This document shows positions 1,195-21,396 of a stretch of DNA of 64,000 nt, in pieces (within the stretch, counting starts at the first letter, position 1; the number at the start of each line of letters is the position of its first letter). Under the pieces are notes generated by a model. It was not told the origin of the DNA and did not search any database. It saw only the letters and a program-made list of their open reading frames with translations. The translations under genes were made by a program, and so were the position numbers. Location: NCBI GenBank assembly GCA_000004985.1, contig GG738865.1; one strand, 5' to 3'. The DNA comes from Naegleria gruberi (lineage: Eukaryota).

Positions 1195-4100
1195 ATGATG
1201 AAATCGATTAGTAACAATAAATCCAAAAGGGAACAGCAACAACGCTCAATGAGCAAATCTTTATCATCGAGTACAATATCCACCCTCCATCAACAACCAG
1301 AAAAAACAACACCCAAAAGAAGAAAATCACAAAATACAAGTCAAGCTCCTGTGCTTGTGGCAGCTTCTCTTGATGATTTTAGTCTTGCTTCTTCAACTCT
1401 TCAAAAAAATGTTCAAGACTCTATTCTAACCACAACTCCATCAACAGTACCAACACCTCTGGTTCAAGTTTCTTTATTTTCCATTCTGAATAAGAGTGGA
1501 TCTTCGGCGCCAAAATTGCCAACAATTTTCAATGATGATGAGGATGAGCAAGAGGTAGAGGAGAGTGAGAGCATAATTTCCTTCCGAAACAATGAAGAAA
1601 TTAGTCAACAACCATCCCGACCAGAATTATCAGCCGCTGAAAACACTTCCCTCTCCGAGCAACAATATTCCTCTCCTCAAATAATGTTCAAAGAATTGAC
1701 GAGGGAGAAATTATTCTCTCAAAAAACATCCCCCAAAAGACCTCTCGTAATTAAATCTTGTGCACATCCAAAGGATAGTACATTTTCCACAGTCAATTTA
1801 ATGTTGGAAAAGGTTTTAAAAATTATTGGAAACTCAAAGAAAGGAACCTTTCTCTTTTTAACAAGATCCAATATGGACTCTCGTATTATCAAGGATATCC
1901 TACTCCAACAAGTTCCTGACCAGATGAAGGATATTAAAGTCATGTCATTTCACACCTTCTCCAGTACCATCCTTAAAAAGGCAGGAAAACCATATGGAAA
2001 TTCTGGATTTAAGATCATTTCCAATGAGGATACTAGATTTTGTTTGAGTAAGGTATTGGAACATAATGATAAAACCAACTCTCTTAAGGAATTATCAATG
2101 GATGTGGAGGGTATTCAGAATTTTATTGAAGCTCTCAAACTGGAAATGAAAACTCCAGACATGCTCCTCCGCGAAATCATTTCACAACACCAAAGAGATT
2201 CAGTCAATGGAGAGAGAAGAAAGTTAATGTTGCTGCAAAATATTTACAGTGAATATGAAAATCTGAAAATGCAAAGTAAGAGTTTGGATTTTACAGATTT
2301 ATTATTGCAATGTCATACTCTCCTGACAAATCCATCATCTGAAACTCTCTCCAACATTGGGCTATCGAATAGATCTGATCTTTATATTCTAATTGATGAT
2401 TTTGAATTGTTAGATCTTCCTCAACATACTCTTTGTAAAGATATTATTTATTTGATGAGTCAAACTCAACAGACATCCATCAAGAGTGTATTGCTAGGAA
2501 CTCAAAAATTGGATTGTGATAATTTGGCTAATTTAAAGCAAACTTTTATGGATCCATTTAGTTTTGATATTTTCAATTTTGATTCTATTGAAGATCAAAT
2601 GAAAGAGACAAAGATCGCAGCCCATCATATACCAATTGAATCAACAAATATATTTGATGATCTCAAATCAGGAGAGTTAGTTTGGAGGTACATTTCTATT
2701 GAAGGGAAAATATTGGATGAAAAAACTTTGCATACAGTCGTTTCAAGATTTGCCGTTAAGGGATTTGAAAAGAATGAAAATGAAACCATCAGTGACATTC
2801 CAACAGAGACAATTCAAATAAGTCCAGAGACTAGTGAGCTTATCTTCCAAAGTGACTCCCTTTCTACCCCAATAGGTGCTGCTGACTATCTGACTGCTCC
2901 ACAAAAAGTATGCAATATTTATTTGGAGTTTTCCTCGAAGAAGGAACAAATGGAATGGTTGGCATCTATTGAAAGAGGAATCATGCTTCAACAAAAGCCA
3001 CTCAAGATGCCACCTTGTTTCAAGGACAAGTGTCAAAAGTTAGATGTAACCAAAGATCAAAAAACAACATTCCAACCCAAGATTAGAATCAATAGGGAAA
3101 AGATTAGAGATATGGTCTATTACAGGCACTCAATATCTGAACAATTCCTCATGAAACTAGAACATGTCATCAACATAATCGAGCAACATATTAACAAGAG
3201 TGCCAAAGCAGCAATTGGAGACGATGTTCCTCTCAAGAATTTAGTAATGAGTAGAATATTCAAGCAACTTGGACAAGAAACACCTGACCAGATAATTATT
3301 GTGGATTTGAAATTGGAGGATTTTTGTCAAGAATGGGAAAAGGATTGGAAGAATTCTTTATTATGGGGTGAAAAGGTAACAGAGCCTTCAACCTCTGAAA
3401 AACTCATGAAATCCATTGCCGAGACTTTATCAAAACTTGGTCAAGAATGTGAAGAAACAACAACACCGATAGTATTGGAAGAAAGTCTTGAAGAGAAAAT
3501 CGAACAAACATCTATGATTGAGGAGCAACCAAAAGAAGAATTTAACAACATGGAAGAGGAGGAAGACCAGATTATCAGTGATATTGTCTCACCAAATTTT
3601 AAAACTCCAAACAATGTCTCCTCTCTTGATGCTCTCATTTCTTCTGCCAACACTGAAAATCCAATGACCATTGAGCAATTGGCTTCGTCAGTTATTGATG
3701 AGGAAATTTATGTTTCTCCTGACAGACAACCATCAAGGGATAGTACTCCACCAAAATCCACTGAAAAAACTCCAAATCAAACAACTATTACTCTTGAACC
3801 AATAAGTACAAACTACTCGAATTATGATGCTAGATCCATTCTGGATCATTTCAGAAAGACACTTTCCACCCAAAAAATCGAACCAACAAAAACACTAGTC
3901 CCCCAAGACAATAAGAAACAACTTATAGAAATTGATTACGAGATGAATAGACTCCTGAATGCCACTCAAGAACACGTCATGCTCGACGACTCTGCCTATG
4001 CCTTTGATTCATCGAAACCACAACTCGACATTACATTCAATAATCAATCGGCATTGAACATGACTGATATTTCTCAAAAACCACTCTTTACACCAACCAA

Positions 4101-4764
4101 GCCATCCTCAAACTTGGCCAAACTTAGAGAGCTAACCTCTCCAAACTCTCCAAGCACTGTATTTTCTAGTATTGTTTCCAAATCTCTTTCCAAAAAGTTA
4201 ACTTCTCCACCTCCTAAAACAAGTCCTTCAATAACCCCTTCGAGAGCTGAACGAAGAAATGCCAAACTTGTTCAAGTCAAATCTGGTTCACCAAGTAAGA
4301 TTATTCAAGTAATTAAAACTCTCAAAACTGGTGTGACCATATATAAACACTCATCGAGTGGAACCTCTAAGAAGAAACTTGTCCACCTATTCCTCTCTGC
4401 AGACGAGAACTTTGTTTGCTATGTGAAACCAGAGTCGAGAAATATTGTCCCTCTCTATGAAATTAAATCCAAATTCCCAGTATCTTCGATCAGATATCTC
4501 CAAAAGGGAGAACTTGTTAAGAAGAGAAGACTATTGGAAATTAAGGGTGGTATTGCAAGTACCTTATTAGGTATCAAGAAGGAGGAAATGAAAGTCGATT
4601 CAACTGTTCTCTTTTCCTTCTGTCTCCCAGAGAGGTATTTAGATTTTGAAGCCAAATCAATAATTGAGTGTCAAACATGGTTTGACATGTGGGAATACTT
4701 TGTAGCAGCTATAGCTAAAAATCAAGCCGAAAAGCAGGTTGAAGAACCAAGTGTTTCTCAATAA
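1195..4764 (+). CDS. Large (1189 aa) low-complexity protein with two PH-like domains, one central and one C-terminal. The N-terminal region has weak UvrD/Rep-like helicase motif similarity without an intact Walker A.
   Basis: The ATG at 1195 was verified. PH-like segments are 'GELVWRYISIEGK...EQMEWLASIERGI' and 'VTIYKHSSSG...CQTWFDMWEYFVAA'. The N-terminal 'GTFLFLTRSNMDSRI', 'VMSFHTFSSTILKK' and 'YILIDDFELLD' resemble UvrD motifs Ia, Ib and II. Where GxGKT would be expected the sequence reads 'SCAHPKDSTFS'. S/T/P-rich tracts are present. Confidence 0.5.
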   Translation: MMKSISNNKSKREQQQRSMSKSLSSSTISTLHQQPEKTTPKRRKSQNTSQAPVLVAASLDDFSLASSTLQKNVQDSILTTTPSTVPTPLVQVSLFSILNKSGSSAPKLPTIFNDDEDEQEVEESESIISFRNNEEISQQPSRPELSAAENTSLSEQQYSSPQIMFKELTREKLFSQKTSPKRPLVIKSCAHPKDSTFSTVNLMLEKVLKIIGNSKKGTFLFLTRSNMDSRIIKDILLQQVPDQMKDIKVMSFHTFSSTILKKAGKPYGNSGFKIISNEDTRFCLSKVLEHNDKTNSLKELSMDVEGIQNFIEALKLEMKTPDMLLREIISQHQRDSVNGERRKLMLLQNIYSEYENLKMQSKSLDFTDLLLQCHTLLTNPSSETLSNIGLSNRSDLYILIDDFELLDLPQHTLCKDIIYLMSQTQQTSIKSVLLGTQKLDCDNLANLKQTFMDPFSFDIFNFDSIEDQMKETKIAAHHIPIESTNIFDDLKSGELVWRYISIEGKILDEKTLHTVVSRFAVKGFEKNENETISDIPTETIQISPETSELIFQSDSLSTPIGAADYLTAPQKVCNIYLEFSSKKEQMEWLASIERGIMLQQKPLKMPPCFKDKCQKLDVTKDQKTTFQPKIRINREKIRDMVYYRHSISEQFLMKLEHVINIIEQHINKSAKAAIGDDVPLKNLVMSRIFKQLGQETPDQIIIVDLKLEDFCQEWEKDWKNSLLWGEKVTEPSTSEKLMKSIAETLSKLGQECEETTTPIVLEESLEEKIEQTSMIEEQPKEEFNNMEEEEDQIISDIVSPNFKTPNNVSSLDALISSANTENPMTIEQLASSVIDEEIYVSPDRQPSRDSTPPKSTEKTPNQTTITLEPISTNYSNYDARSILDHFRKTLSTQKIEPTKTLVPQDNKKQLIEIDYEMNRLLNATQEHVMLDDSAYAFDSSKPQLDITFNNQSALNMTDISQKPLFTPTKPSSNLAKLRELTSPNSPSTVFSSIVSKSLSKKLTSPPPKTSPSITPSRAERRNAKLVQVKSGSPSKIIQVIKTLKTGVTIYKHSSSGTSKKKLVHLFLSADENFVCYVKPESRNIVPLYEIKSKFPVSSIRYLQKGELVKKRRLLEIKGGIASTLLGIKKEEMKVDSTVLFSFCLPERYLDFEAKSIIECQTWFDMWEYFVAAIAKNQAEKQVEEPSVSQ

Positions 4765-4932: not shown

Positions 4933-5727
4933 ATGTACAACCAAAGTGAAACGGCAATCTTTAACAACGAAGAGCAGCCACCTCAAGTAGAAGATGCCTA
5001 TGCCGGATATGATGATGTTGCCACAGGAACAACAGAAGCACCTGGATTGTCTGCCGAAATTGTCTATCATCCTTACTTTCAATTGGCAACATTTTGCTTA
5101 ATAATGGGAGTTATTGGTGTTGTTGCTGTTCCAATCTCTGGTTGGTTTATTGGTGATGGATTATATCGTTCCTATAGCGGACCATCACATTTATTAGATG
5201 TTGTTGTTTGCTTATTGGTTGGATTATTCTTAATGGCCCTTACTTTGATGATTGTTGGATTTATTTTGGCTGTTTTGGCTACCCAATGGAATTACATTCA
5301 TGAAGGTACATCAAAGGAACAGTATGGAGCAGGTGAAGGAATGACATCAACCCCAGTATACGATCAAAAGACTATTGTTCAAAAGAGGAGAACATTTATC
5401 ATTTCAGTAATCTTTACCGTTCCATACTCTATTATTGGTTTTTATTATTGTATTGCTGGATTAGTTGCTGTTATTTCCACAGCCTCATCAAATTTCCCAA
5501 CATTTACTAACTTTGTCGATTACACTGGATTTGGTTTGGGATTTTTAATGCTCTATTTTGGTTGTGCTTTGATTTCGCTTACAGTCATGATCTCAGTAGG
5601 TCTTTTCAGAAGTTGGAAACAAGCTGAAACCTCTGATCCAGGTTGTTCACATCCTATTCTTCAAAAGATTGGAGACTTTTTGAAGAGATATGTTTGCTGT
5701 GTTAATGGTCAAGTTGCCGAAGCTTAA
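4933..5727 (+). CDS. Multi-pass membrane protein of 264 aa with four or more predicted TM helices. Function unknown.
   Basis: The ATG at 4933 was verified. There are several 20-25 aa hydrophobic stretches (LIMGVIGVVAVPISGWFI, VVCLLVGLFLMALTLMIVGFILAVLA, FIISVIFTVPYSIIGFYYCIAGLVAVI, LGFLMLYFGCALISLTVMISVGL). It is convergent with the next gene, with only about 20 nt between their stops. Confidence 0.45.
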   Translation: MYNQSETAIFNNEEQPPQVEDAYAGYDDVATGTTEAPGLSAEIVYHPYFQLATFCLIMGVIGVVAVPISGWFIGDGLYRSYSGPSHLLDVVVCLLVGLFLMALTLMIVGFILAVLATQWNYIHEGTSKEQYGAGEGMTSTPVYDQKTIVQKRRTFIISVIFTVPYSIIGFYYCIAGLVAVISTASSNFPTFTNFVDYTGFGLGFLMLYFGCALISLTVMISVGLFRSWKQAETSDPGCSHPILQKIGDFLKRYVCCVNGQVAEA

Positions 5728-15417: not shown

Positions 15418-16732
15418 TTACTTGGAAATCTTTGTAAAATCAGGGAATAAATTCAAATTCTTAAAGTATTTGATTTGTTCTTCAATAAGATCCTTGGTAA
15501 CCTTTGGATGTTCATAATTGAAGCCAGTATCCTTTTCAATCAATGATCCATCAACAGAGAGTGAGTTATTGTACAATAATTCCTTATCAATGTAAGGTGA
15601 AAGAGGAGTAAATTTGATTCCTGATTGTTTGATCATTTCACTCCAAGGATTCATGTGATTTTCGTTAGCAGTTTCAGCAGCACTCTTCATGTTCAATTTG
15701 GCTGCTTGTGAGAGAAGTGTTCCAAAGAATCCAGTTTCAATTCCGAAAATTTGTTCGAAAATTTCATTAATCTTCTTTTGATCTGTTTGATTCTTATCAC
15801 TCAAATTATAGACAAGAGTTCCAGTTGATTTGGTATTCATGTAGACATGCCAGAGAGCACGAGCAACATCTCTAACGTGAACAGTATTAATACACAAATC
15901 ACCACTCCACAAGAATTTCATCTTATCCTTGGTGAGAGTATAAGTACAGGCACAAGTAATACGTGGAGTAAGACCATTCAAATCAGCAGGTCCATAAATT
16001 ATTGATGGACGAAGAATGACCAATTTTTGAGAGAGTTCAGGTGAAAGCTTTTTCAATTCATCTTCAGCTTGAGCCTTGAACTTAGCTTGATTAGTCCATG
16101 GAGCAATCTTGTCAGTTTCTTTACTGGCCTTGCTACCAGAGTCATAGACTTGAGCAGTACTAACTTCAACATACTTTTCAATTGATGACAAGTAATTGAG
16201 AGCTTCCTTGGCACAGTTAATAGAAATGTCGAAAATCATTTGCTTGTAAGTGGCTTCTTCTTGTCCGTATCTGGTTTCAGCAGCCAAATTGACAACAAAT
16301 TGATATGGTCCAGTGGTATCTTCAAAAGCCTTTTTAATGTGAGTTGGATTAGACAAGTTAGCTTGTTTGAATTCAACAATTGGATTGTTTTCATAAATGT
16401 TGAGGAATTCTTCGGACAAGTAGGCTATTGTTGTTGTTTAAATTAATTTAATTATGAAATATATTATTGATGATGATGAATTTAAATTGATGATGAACAG
16501 ATGATGATGACAGTCGACGGTGATTCAAATGATTATTCATAAGCATCACCATTAAATATTAATAATAATTAATTAACAACAATAATATTCAAAACATACC
16601 AGTCTTTGGCAATTGCTTATCAGCAACTCTAATCTTACTAGCCAAATCTTTATCCACAAGGTATTTAACAAAATGTCTACCGACAAATCCAGTTCCTCCC
16701 AAAACGAGCACTCTTGGTTTAGCTGTTGGCAT
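15418..16732 (-). CDS. NAD(P)-binding epimerase/dehydratase-type SDR (extended family). Two exons, approximately complement(join(15418..16424,16600..16732)).
   Basis: Exon 1 'MPTAKPRVLVLGGTGFVGRHFVKYL...PKT' carries the Rossmann GxxGxxG. It ends at a GTATGT donor. The acceptor is a TAG followed by '...YLSEEFLNIYENN'. The 175-nt intron joins the two ORFs in frame, for a total of 1140 nt or 380 codons. The ORF-track 'M' at 16419 is a TTG. Confidence 0.6.
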
Positions 16733-17257
16733 TTTCTCTTTTATAGTACAATATTTAATAACAACACAACAATAATACAATTAATTATCAAAGTCTTCCG
16801 CGCTCACCCAAGAAAAAACCAAGAAAAAAATTCTTCTCTCTTTTTTATTAAAATTTGATGATGAAGAGAATGCTGCATTGTCTTTATGCTTGATGGCTGT
16901 TGTTGGTGATATGATGAATATCGAACCATGTACGCGATGACTTCGAATGTTCACCTGTGCTCGGATTTATGAGAGATTTGGTTTTTGACGAGTTTTGTGT
17001 GATTCGTTCAGTGCACTCTTAGGAAGGTTTGACTTGATTTGGAGCACCATTTGAATTGAAGATATTGAGAGCAGAGGATTAAGGGATTTTGATGAGATTG
17101 GTGTGCCATTGAGTGGATAATAGTGTAATTTATCATTGTATTGAAAATATTATGACCTACCATTGTTAATTTCAACACAGTTGATCTGACATCACCTGCC
17201 AAATGCAAGTTCATCTTTCTGACATTTCAAATTTACATCATTTTAAAAAAATTCACA

Positions 17258-17824
17258 ATGCAAATCAACGGCAAACTTGTTTTCACCCTCCTATTGGCTG
17301 TTGTATTGTTATTCTTCATTGCTGACTCTCAACAATCATGTAGTGGTCTTCCAACTTGTTCAACTCCTCGTGCTGGACACAAACCTTCTGTGAATGGTTG
17401 CGGACCTAGACATTCAAAGATCTTGAACTTGTTAGGAAATGTTCTTTTCAAAGCTTTTGAAGAATGTTGTAATGGTCATGGTATGTTTCTTCTTTCAAAA
17501 ATTATCGGATTGACCATTTTATTTTGTTTGGCATGTTTTAATTGACTATTTAATTTTGGAAAAGATGTTTGTTATGAAACATGTGGAGTTTCTAGATCAA
17601 CTTGTGATAGTCAACTTTATAGTTGCATGAAGCAAGTTTGTAAGAAACAATCAAGACTCAAGAGAGGTTGGTGTGAATTGAAAGCTAAGGGAATTAACAT
17701 GGGATTGAAACCTGATTTTGATGTGAATTGTAAGGCATTTGCTGGAGCTCAAAATAAGGCATGTGATTGCTCTGTTGCTGCACCAGCTTCCAATGATGAT
17801 GATGATCTTTCAGATGAGGAATAA
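17258..17824 (+). CDS. Group XII-type secretory phospholipase A2. Two exons, join(17258..17480,17565..17824), with a signal peptide.
   Basis: There is an N-terminal signal peptide 'MQINGKLVFTLLLAVVLLFFIA'. The catalytic motif 'CCNGH|DVCYETCG' is split by an 84-nt intron (GTATGT...AG). The D codon is reconstituted as g+at. Human PLA2G12A has 'CCNQHDRCYETCG'. Further Cys pairs lie downstream. Confidence 0.7.
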
Positions 17825-17924
17825 ATTGTATTTGCAACAAACTTTGAATTTGCTTTAAATTTTTGTGGAATATGGATTAATCTTGTTTATGGTTGACAAT
17901 TAACTAAATATGAATAAGAGAATT

Positions 17925-20900
17925 TTATTTGGATGTGAGAGAGGATGGTAGGTAGAATTTCAGAGAAGGAATGGTAACTGATGAATTATCAAGTAGGGAT
18001 CTTCCAGTAATTTGCAAGAGTACAAAATCGTCATCTGAATTGAAAGCATTGAAATTCACCCAAAGTTGGACCAATTTAGAGCTCATTCTCTGATTCAATG
18101 GAGATACAGTAGAGAATACAAATTGAAAATTGGAATAGATTGAGTAGGAATTGCCAGATGCATTGGAATCTTTCAATTCTATAGAAAGAGTTTCACATGA
18201 GTATTTTTCCTTCATCATGTCAACAATATCCTTAATTGTAAAGTCTTGTCTTTCATTTGCATTGTTAAGTTCTAAAAGATCCCATTCTGTTACAGAAATA
18301 GTTTCATTTCCTGTATTAAGGGAAAAGCTTTGTGTTCTCAAATGTAAGTATTTAAAAAAATCTGTTGAATACTTTCCACTACAATCTATTGAATAACTGG
18401 GGAATTGTTCACCTTTCATAGGAGATTCTTGTACAAGCTTTCCAATAATTGTTAAAAGTATTGTAACAATCAAACACATACCTTGTAATATTGTAAAGTT
18501 GCATATCCAGCAGTTATTGAATTACTAATTGAATTGCTAGGAGTCAATCCAACCACTCTCTTAATATAGTGTTTATCCACTATTGGTGGAATTTTATAGC
18601 ATTGAGCTCTAACTAGAGCACATGCTTGAACGAAATCCAAATGTAAATCATTGTAAGGATCAAAAGTAATGAATTCAATATTCAATTGGTTCAATATTGT
18701 TTCAATTTTTTCTTTCAATGTTTCTTCAGAAAGTTCAGAATCAATTTTTTTCATTCCCAAATCTTCTTCTTTCAAAACTTTGGCTAATATTTCTTTCAAT
18801 TCTTCCATATTTGGTAAATCAACTGAATAAACCTTGGATCTCAAAATAGCACTATATAGAACAAAATCCAAGTGAGAGGCATTGATAGCATTGAAAGGAA
18901 CAGGAACTGGTCTTCTCATTCTAGCCAAATATTCAGGTAAAGTGCCATTCCTCATGAATGGAGCAAAATATGTTTCTAATATTTCACTAATTCCCTTATC
19001 GAAATATTCATTGAATTTGACAACTGCCCATCTTATGCTATTTTCAAAATGGCAAGGATTGTATAGAACAATATCAGTGTACTTGTCTCTGAAATCACCA
19101 AATGGGCCTAAATGAATGAGTAAATTATCCTTATACATTTCTTTGAAAGGATAGTCAATTGAGAAATTTATCATATCCTTCATGGAGCCATAATAATTGA
19201 TTATTTGTGGATAGGATACTTCGTTACTCTCCCTAACATGCTTTCCACTCAAGTGTGGAATCATTAAAGTGACATTTCCTTTCATACATTCACTTGTGGC
19301 AAAAATTGCTCTTTTGGTAGAATTAATGACACGAGAAACAATTAAATCAGCAATTGGTTTTCCAGGAACTGTGCACGTATATCCACTATATTGATCCAAA
19401 TTATTCCAAGAAAATTGTTCCTCTTCTTCATTCACTGGTCTTGCTCTCGCATATTCTTCAACCATGTCAATTTTCATTTGAGGATTAATGTGATTTTTCA
19501 CGTAGTCTATTGCGAGCATGGACTTGATATTGGCAAACTTACTTATATCCTCCTCTATAATGAATGGATGTGTTATGAGATTTGGTAAGATGGCCTCCTT
19601 GGCATCGACAAGAGTTGTGGATGGAGCTTCTTCATGAGAACTGAGACCCATCAGGGCATAATTCTTCAAACATTCCCATCCTAATCCACCCATTCCAAAT
19701 ATTACCTCATTAGATTTCATTATTTTTGATTGTAATGTTTTACCAATCAAGTTAATTTGTTGTTGAAATCTTTTCATTTTGTGTGGAATGTTAACACAAT
19801 CTTCGTGAGTTGGAAGAGGACTTGGCAGGCAATCCCATGCATCTAAACATTCCCATTGATCAATTATTGGAAAGTAATACATACTCAAATTCTTGAGAAT
19901 TTCCATCACAATGAAAGCTCCCGTGATGCTTGTGAATGGAGCTGACCTTCCTTGACATGTGAAAGCAAGGGTTTTGCAAATTTCTTGATTGAAGAATTGG
20001 TTTGGAATTCTATCTTTTGCAAATTGCACAAATTCTAAAGCATCTTGCTCATGGTAAGGTTTTGGAATTTTTCCATTCTCCCTTTCGAATAGTTCAAGTT
20101 GAGTGAAAGCATGTCTCTTCTCTACCTTCGTCCTTGAATCCGAATCTTTAAATGTTGGATTATCCAACTCTTCTTTAAGTGATTTAAGCTTGTGAGATCT
20201 TATATCTAGACCAGTAACATTACATTTCATGAAATAAGCTGAGCCATCCCCCAATTCGAATTTTCCAAAATTAGTAGAATCCAAATCTACAACCACTCGA
20301 TTTCCAATCTTTGATTTGATTCTAACCGCCTTGTGTTCATTCAATTCCGTCATTCCCCTAACATTTCTAAAGACAATATTTTGATGAACATTCATTCCCT
20401 CTTCCTTATTAAATTCATCATCTAAAAGATCAATTTTTGTTGGGTTTCCATTGATGATATCCTTAATTGAACAACCTTCTTTGAAGCCAGGGTTCAGATC
20501 TTTGATTTTGTGTTCGCCCATATCATAGAATATTAAACATGATAAGCCCTTCATGTCGGATGCCACGAATTTAATATTATTATCGTGACAGGTTTGAGCC
20601 AAATCAATCAGTGATGAAAGAGAATGTTCAGTACAAATAATAAAATCAAACTCTTTCAAAAACTGCACATCACCTGCCAAGCTGTCAACTTGACCATCTT
20701 TCACATTAATTTGTGCAAATGGATTCAATCCATTCAACACAATCATTGCTCTCTCCGCTCTATTTCTTCCAATCACTTCTACCTCCTTCGAATCGGCAAC
20801 AATCGAATAAAAATCTGCCAAATCCTCATACGAAACCATCTTTGAATCCATCAGTGTTAATTGTTCAATTCCATTTTGGAGTAAATTCTTTGCCACTTCC

Positions 20901-21022
20901 AATCCAAGTCCTCCCATTCCACACACCAACACTCTACACTTATTGAAGGTTGTGATTTTATCCTCTGGCCACCACGTATGCACCAATGTATCATAGAATT
21001 GCTGTTTGGTTAGTGTCGACAT
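17925..21022 (-). CDS. Ubiquitin-like modifier-activating enzyme E1 (UBA1/UBA6-like). Two exons, approximately complement(join(17925..18437,18482..21022)).
   Basis: There are two ThiF/MoeB folds: 'VLVCGMGGLGLEVAKNLLQNG' and 'VIFGMGGLGWECLKNYALMG'. 'KGNVTLMIPHLS' and 'NPCHFENSIRWAVVKFNEYF' match UBA1 'KGNVQVVIPFLT' and '[27 protein letters not shown]'. The C-terminal UFD-like exon is joined through a 44-nt intron (AAG|GTATGT...AAAG|CTT). The true ATG is at 21020-21022. Confidence 0.65.
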
Positions 21023-21046
21023 TTTTTTTTCTTTTGAAAAGTCGCA

Positions 21047-21063
21047 CACTTTTGGCGGGAAGA
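21047..21063. promoter_or_regulatory. E2F-like site, TTTTGGCGGGAAG, about 30 nt upstream of the E1 gene ATG (minus-strand gene).
   Basis: 'cacttttggcgggaagatg'. Confidence 0.35.
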
Positions 21064-21396
21064 TGTTTAACATTGTTTTACAATCAAATTGCTTTATTCT
21101 CTGTTATTTATTAGTATTGAATATCAAAGGTGAAATAAAGAGAATAGAAGGGAGAATAAAGGCGCCTTCTCACTACAGCTTTGTCAAAAAAGCTTATTTG
21201 GAATGGATAAATGTAAAAAATTTGTGCTTGTGGTGTAATGCATACAATCAAATTGTAGTGGCTGTCTTTGTTTCACTTTTCATCATTATTAACATGTCAA
21301 ATTCACAATGATTAATGACATTTTGATCAAACAATTCTCATAAAAAAACTTTACAAAGGTTCAATTATTCGAGAATTTACAAAACTCAAAAAAAAA

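Follow-up and report, generated by a model that had tools for sequence, protein, structure and literature searches.

A predicted group XII-type secreted phospholipase A2 of Naegleria gruberi, encoded by a two-exon gene with an intron-split aspartate codon

The conventional secreted phospholipases A2 (PLA2s) are characterized by a Ca2+-binding loop of the form XCGXGG and a catalytic site of the form DXCCXXHD (PMC3111613). Among the group XII proteins of mammals, group XIIA is a very weak enzyme and group XIIB has no activity; group XIIA is also listed as highly active on Gram-positive and moderately active on Gram-negative bacteria (PMC3111613). A locus resembling these proteins lies at 17258-17824 of a 64,000-nucleotide (nt) stretch of the genome of Naegleria gruberi (contig GG738865.1); we call the whole of this stretch the window, and all coordinates below are positions in it. 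N. gruberi is a free-living heterolobosean amoeboflagellate that eats bacteria, so that the "soil amoeba" of an earlier note on this DNA was fair wording. The locus is a genuine two-exon gene with a GTATGT...AG intron, hereafter the PLA2 gene, and by sequence comparison its product is a group XII-type secreted PLA2 with its catalytic residues intact.

In a Pfam scan the spliced product of 160 amino acids (aa) matched PF06951 (PLA2G12, the group XII secretory PLA2 precursor family) at 54.2 bits against a gathering cut-off of 34 (E = 2.3e-14), with residues 34-144 placed on profile positions 67-177 of 184, and it matched no second family at E <= 1, including PF09056 and the conventional secreted-PLA2 families. 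The profile thus bears out the family named in the earlier note. A search of 1.8 billion proteins recovered an orthologue from Naegleria fowleri at E = 3e-42, and these two E-values together place the match far above chance. The animal group XIIA proteins, such as human PLA2G12A and Xenia sp. XP_046855039.1 (named "group XIIA secretory phospholipase A2-like" by NCBI), share with the Naegleria protein, in addition to the PF06951 domain, the motifs KPSxNGCG and CCNxHDxCYETCG, a complement of 14 Cys, and an organization in which a predicted signal peptide is followed by a small mature domain, at 32-34% identity. All 14 Cys of the N. gruberi protein lie in its mature region, and 13 of them align with Cys of the Xenia protein. 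The human PLA2G12A sequence also has 14 Cys and scores 282.6 bits on PF06951 over profile positions 20-184; aligned with the Naegleria protein, it shows 34% identity across 110 residues. The likeness of the sequence CCNGH|DVCYETCG to the PLA2G12 active site, from which the earlier note had started, therefore extends further: the Naegleria protein has the Cys framework of animal group XIIA as well as its NGCG loop and His-Asp motif.

There are also differences from the animal proteins. The Naegleria protein is without the ~45-residue N-terminal extension of animal XIIA, its match beginning at profile position 67 of 184, and its second N-terminal Cys is placed otherwise, C34 being aligned with a Gly. 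The group I, II, V and X signatures are lacking too: the loop reads GCGPRH and the site EECCNGHD, and only the CCxxHD core is held in common with the conventional enzymes. The microbial PLA2s of family PF09056, namely 1faz of Streptomyces violaceoruber and 4aup of Tuber borchii, align with the Naegleria protein over their C-x-HD-x-Y motif and the downstream Asp, but the latter has CC rather than a single C ahead of HD, the NGCG loop, and, as stated above, no PF09056 match. The microbial enzymes moreover have only a few Cys, as opposed to 14 in the Naegleria protein. Mammalian group XIIB (PLA2G12B) belongs to the same family and has the same Cys-rich scaffold, but a Leu replaces its catalytic His and it is inactive (PMC3111613), whereas the Naegleria protein keeps the equivalent residue, His74.

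The spliced coding sequence is 483 nt long and carries the active-site motif CCNGHDVCYETCG across the exon junction. Exon 1 (17258..17480, +, 223 nt) runs from the ATG at 17258 through the predicted signal peptide, the Ca2+-loop region and CCNGH to the initial base of the Asp75 codon, its 3' end reading ...TGT TGT AAT GGT CAT G. The spliceosomal intron (17481..17564, +, 84 nt, GTATGT...AAAAG, acceptor AG at 17563-17564) is in phase 1 and divides the Asp75 codon as G|AT. Exon 2 (17565..17824, +, 260 nt) opens with AT GTT TGT TAT GAA ACA TGT GGA, and thus completes the Asp75 codon with two bases, followed by VCYETCG, Asp89, the remaining Cys, an acidic tail and the stop codon TAA (17822-17824). 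The G+C content (GC) of the intron is 25%, that of the coding sequence 38% and that of the window 34%; if the intron is retained, the frame ends at 17545 after 95 aa, upstream of Asp75. The spliced product is identical at every residue to EFC44920.1 / XP_002677664.1 / UniProt D2VDL8 / NAEGRDRAFT_66966, and the translation of exon 1 is the start of RefSeq XP_002677664.1; the intron of the reference annotation is accordingly the same one.

The N. fowleri orthologue (FDP41_003699; XP_044561759.1, A0A6A5BPT6) provides a second line of evidence for this structure. It is encoded by one intronless exon of 471 nt (positions 4001-4471 of its retrieved locus), and its 156-aa protein is 52% identical to that of N. 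gruberi in a multiple alignment and 57% identical over the mature domain, with the same Cys, the same motifs and the same acidic ...DEE end. When the spliced N. gruberi protein is aligned with it the junction is crossed without a gap, CCNGHDVCYETCG being matched by CCNEHDMCYETCG, at 57% identity over 119 residues. Since an intronless orthologue is collinear at the junction, the N. gruberi splice sites are confirmed, and with them the 84-nt intron rebuilding the Asp codon that had been proposed from the window. The presence of the intron in N. gruberi and its absence from the orthologue further imply that it was gained or lost inside the genus. The donor G|GTATGT is used by three adjacent genes, recurring from 17481-17486 (+) in both flanking genes, at 16599-16594 (-) and 18481-18476 (-). 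Across the window GTATGT is rarer than expected, with 13 copies against 21.9 in shuffled sequences. This donor, shared with both neighbours, and the higher AT content of the intron relative to the exons also support the splice model.

Conservation was counted in an alignment of 25 homologues. N46, G47, C48, G49, C71, H74, D75, C100, C111, Q137 and C141 are invariant, and the other Cys of the N. gruberi protein are mostly near-invariant. The codons of N46-G47-C48-G49-P50 (17393..17407, +), the first four residues of which are the same in all 25 sequences, specify the predicted Ca2+-binding loop. The predicted catalytic His74 is encoded by the CAT at 17477..17479 (+), the final whole codon of exon 1, and its predicted partner Asp89 by the GAT at 17606..17608 (+), a position occupied by Asp in 20 and by Glu in five of the homologues. 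A family-profile search of PDB chains reached 1faz (E = 3e-7) and 4aup, and in the profile alignment H74, D75 and D89 pair with H64, D65 and D85 of the Streptomyces protein. In 1faz, H64 and D85 are the catalytic dyad and D65 a Ca2+ ligand. On this assignment the intron-split Asp75 would be a Ca2+ ligand, and the candidate dyad partner of His74 is Asp89, which lies wholly within exon 2. The earlier suggestion that the intron splits a His-Asp dyad can hence be kept in part: the motif is intact, but the Asp with the divided codon corresponds to Asp65 of 1faz, and the candidate partner is Asp89. This refines the wording and leaves the conclusion unchanged.

An AlphaFold2 model computed from the alignment of 25 sequences is mostly helical, with a mean pLDDT of 87, and its best three Foldseek matches, 4aup, 1faz and 8k1w, are all microbial PLA2s, at weak E-values. 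The predicted model thus has the helical fold of a secreted PLA2. A single-sequence search of the PDB sequences gave no match, and neither the sequence nor the profile searches of PDB chains returned a group XII protein.

The N-terminus of the protein comprises an n-region, MQINGK, with one Lys, a 16-residue h-region, LVFTLLLAVVLLFFIA, and, in accordance with the -3/-1 rule, a predicted cleavage site ADS|QQ. The Kyte-Doolittle mean over residues 7-22 is 3.2, and the N-termini of the homologues are likewise hydrophobic. These heuristics place a predicted signal peptide at residues 1-24 (17258..17329, +), in agreement with the signal peptide claimed at the outset, and leave, by the same heuristic cleavage, a predicted mature protein of 136 aa and ~14.7 kDa.

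We consider it quite probable that the locus is a functional two-exon gene for a ~17-kDa precursor, which would give rise to a secreted group XII-type PLA2, likely for attack on prey or target membranes. In the mechanism that we propose, the ~24-residue signal peptide would take the precursor into the secretory pathway, and the mature protein of ~136 aa would be held by up to seven disulfides formed among its 14 Cys. The NGCG loop and Asp75 would bind a Ca2+ ion, and His74, oriented by Asp89, would activate a water molecule, so that the sn-2 ester of a glycerophospholipid is cut to yield a fatty acid and a lysophospholipid. The protein would thus most likely be a Ca2+-dependent PLA2, secreted or luminal, with the mechanism of the other His/Asp secreted PLA2s. 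In a bacterivorous amoeba the most likely use of such an enzyme would be in an attack on prey or target membranes, whether phagolysosomal or extracellular. The antibacterial activity of group XIIA (PMC3111613), the related domains at the tips of bacterial RHS toxins (see below) and the bacterial diet together make an attack on prey membranes plausible.

Several points weigh against this proposal. The N-terminus is signal-peptide-like as judged by heuristics; the role in prey digestion is a speculation by analogy, and the signalling role also raised in the earlier note is equally speculative; and the very weak activity of group XIIA and the inactivity of group XIIB (PMC3111613) mean that membership of the family is no guarantee of strong catalysis. 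In addition, the accession numbers of the two Naegleria proteins were not found in papers or in one N. fowleri proteomics supplement. Finally, the acidic C-terminus, ...NDDDDLSDEE (17795-17821), together with the KDEL-like ends of several homologues, would also fit an intracellular location in place of true secretion.

The C-termini differ within the family. Both Naegleria orthologues end in an acidic ...DEE, in contrast to the KLEL of the Xenia protein and the KTDL of human PLA2G12A. Among the dinoflagellate and cnidarian homologues the final residues are KDEL, SAEL, NSEL, KLEL or KVEL, which resemble retrieval signals of the endoplasmic reticulum (ER), and residence within the secretory pathway may differ by lineage. 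The main alternative is a group XII member whose work is done chiefly within the ER or Golgi, or which has no enzymatic role and serves as a ligand or chaperone, comparable to mammalian XIIB and Xenopus "Rossy"; the Naegleria protein would then be no secreted lipolytic enzyme. Such a reading draws on the ER-retrieval-like ends of several homologues, on the chance that the conserved ...DEE end of the two orthologues is itself a sorting signal, and on the precedent of group XIIB, which is inactive and yet biologically important, alongside a group XIIA of very weak activity (PMC3111613). We nevertheless think it unlikely, as the C-terminus of the Naegleria protein does not conform to KDEL/HDEL, and as His74 (the residue replaced in XIIB), Asp75 and the NGCG loop are all invariant in the 25 homologues, which argues against a non-enzymatic role.

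The group XII family had been described in the earlier note as sparsely distributed outside animals, a view that our searches do not uphold. An exhaustive search returned 1091 clusters at 50% identity (E <= 0.001), and the family has many protist members. Named representatives include N. fowleri, with two paralogues, the rhizarian Lapot gusevi, the dinoflagellates Polarella, Effrenium and Symbiodinium, MMETSP transcriptomes and a soft coral. In bacteria, one narrow motif scan of genomes that used a 5-sequence alignment found 58 loci, spanning Planctomycetota, Actinomycetes, Verrucomicrobiota, Myxococcales, Burkholderia, Leucothrix, Vandammella and Brevibacterium. When six of the bacterial proteins were tested, three scored above the PF06951 threshold, two scored above the PF09056 threshold only and one reached neither threshold, and four of the six gave matches to both profiles; the two families hence grade into one another. 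In a rough neighbour-joining (NJ) tree of 109 columns the two Naegleria orthologues form a pair with 100% bootstrap and fall among protist sequences, outside the bacterial and animal clusters, with negligible support for the deep nodes.

Two of the bacterial loci have a distinctive architecture. In an Opitutales metagenome-assembled genome (1255-1983 of locus L016) and in Vandammella animalimorsus (655-1794 of locus L053) an RHS/YD-repeat protein carries the PLA2G12-like domain at its C-terminal tip, where the domain sits after a ...DPIxxxGGxNLY/F... core-end motif in the manner of polymorphic-toxin domains. The Opitutales protein scores above the PF06951 threshold, and that of Vandammella also matches the Pfam families RHS and RHS_repeat.

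The domain is common in bacteria, where one motif scan alone gave 58 loci and some proteins score above the PF06951 threshold, which raises the question of whether the PLA2 gene was recently acquired from bacteria, or whether it represents bacterial contamination of the assembly. Against such an origin stand the spliceosomal intron with the donor consensus of the neighbouring genes, the location of the gene on an 820-kb scaffold with N. gruberi genes to either side, a GC of 38% that fits the 34% of the host window, and the occurrence in N. fowleri of an orthologue and a second paralogue. The NJ tree also places the Naegleria pair with protists and outside the bacterial cluster, subject to its unsupported deep nodes. 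The intron, the host-like composition, the presence in two Naegleria species and the NJ placement thus speak against contamination or recent transfer, which we regard as highly improbable.

A further line of evidence for the intron comes from a metagenome contig (L001; ENA ERZ929261, run ERR1078381), positions 1-2423 of which correspond to 15854-18283 of the window at 98.2% identity over 2.4 kb. Evidently, judging from this contig, a strain closely related to the Naegleria of the window is present in the ERZ929261 sample. Within the 483 nt of PLA2 coding sequence the contig shows a single change, which is synonymous (17452, AAA to AAG), while the 84-nt intron has three, including a 3-nt insertion; three of the four differences in the gene are hence inside the intron (Fisher p = 0.011). 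Across the whole region the differences cluster in two introns and the intergenic spacer.

As the unspliced frame stops after 95 aa, the locus might be taken for a pseudogene, in decay or not expressed, and its intron for an artefact of gene modelling. This we find scarcely credible, given that the spliced frame is open, that the protein, at 52% identity to N. fowleri, retains its full set of 14 Cys and of catalytic residues, and that the sole coding difference from the second strain is synonymous, with three changes including a 3-nt indel in the intron. A chance open reading frame (ORF) was likewise rejected, along with the contamination and pseudogene readings.

The PLA2 gene occupies a 1.1-kb gap between two minus-strand genes. 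Upstream, and divergent from it, lies a gene for an NAD-dependent epimerase / 3-beta-HSD-like protein (15418-16732, -) that contains an intron and starts with an ATG at 16732-16730. The two are separated by a common divergent intergenic region of 525 nt (16733..17257), which presumably holds the PLA2 promoter and 5' untranslated region. Downstream, and convergent with it, an intron-containing gene for a ubiquitin-E1-like protein (17925-21073, -) has its stop codon 100 nt past that of the PLA2 gene. A short intron beginning at 18481 divides this gene into ORFs at 17925-18479 and 18470-21073 (-), and its final exon, an ORF of 184 aa, gave no Pfam match, though the E1 C-terminal domain would be expected there. 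Nothing in the surroundings suggests a functional cluster around the PLA2 gene, and a tblastn search with 25 family members found no second PLA2 copy within the 64-kb window. The N. fowleri orthologue is flanked by SPRY and kinase genes, as opposed to the epimerase and E1-like genes of N. gruberi, and local synteny is therefore absent.

The window contains five long ORFs that match N. gruberi proteins exactly, among them EFC44919, EFC44921, EFC45027 and EFC44924; four of the five have NCBI/UniProt records and share a single scaffold of 820,293 bp, whereas the fifth is found only in Logan/ENA. An ATG-initiated ORF of 264 aa at 4933-5727 (+) is known from Logan/ENA ORF calls and not among the NCBI proteins of N. 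gruberi. Of the accession numbers falling between those of the two flanking plus-strand genes, EFC44920 is the only one on the plus strand, and as it belongs to the PLA2 gene, the ORF at 4933-5727 may be unannotated or differently modelled in the reference.

The model of the PLA2 gene is already public, and its family assignment is obtainable by a routine Pfam scan. The name on record for XP_002677664.1 and D2VDL8 is only "predicted protein" or "uncharacterized protein", and in UniProt the N. fowleri orthologue already goes by the name "Phospholipase A2 domain-containing protein". D2VDL8 sits in a 90% cluster represented by a shorter metagenome ORF of 96 aa that consists of exon 1 and its read-through. 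Three homology searches missed the annotated N. gruberi protein, and the absence of a name from a list of matches does not mean that a gene is unannotated. Literature searches on Naegleria with group XII or PLA2G12, on the accession numbers and on the metagenome project PRJEB11402 found no discussion of XP_002677664.1 or of the N. fowleri orthologue.

With the PLA2 gene a known family gains a further uncharacterised member, and nothing in current understanding is challenged; the functional name now given to a gene that RefSeq lists as "uncharacterized protein" is of modest importance. For the family, the searches reveal a wide occurrence of group XII-type PLA2 domains among protists and among bacteria, where they are also found as the tips of RHS toxins; these domains are not an animal speciality. 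For Naegleria, a secreted phospholipase A activity was reported from culture media in 1982 and linked to the breakdown of myelin phospholipids in primary amoebic meningoencephalitis, and a 2023 review states that the gene responsible had not yet been characterised. It is a tentative and rather doubtful suggestion that XP_002677664.1 and FDP41_003699 are the source of this activity, and that in the harmless N. gruberi the enzyme serves in the killing or digestion of bacterial prey. The two genes provide a concrete candidate pair for the secreted phospholipase A of Naegleria.
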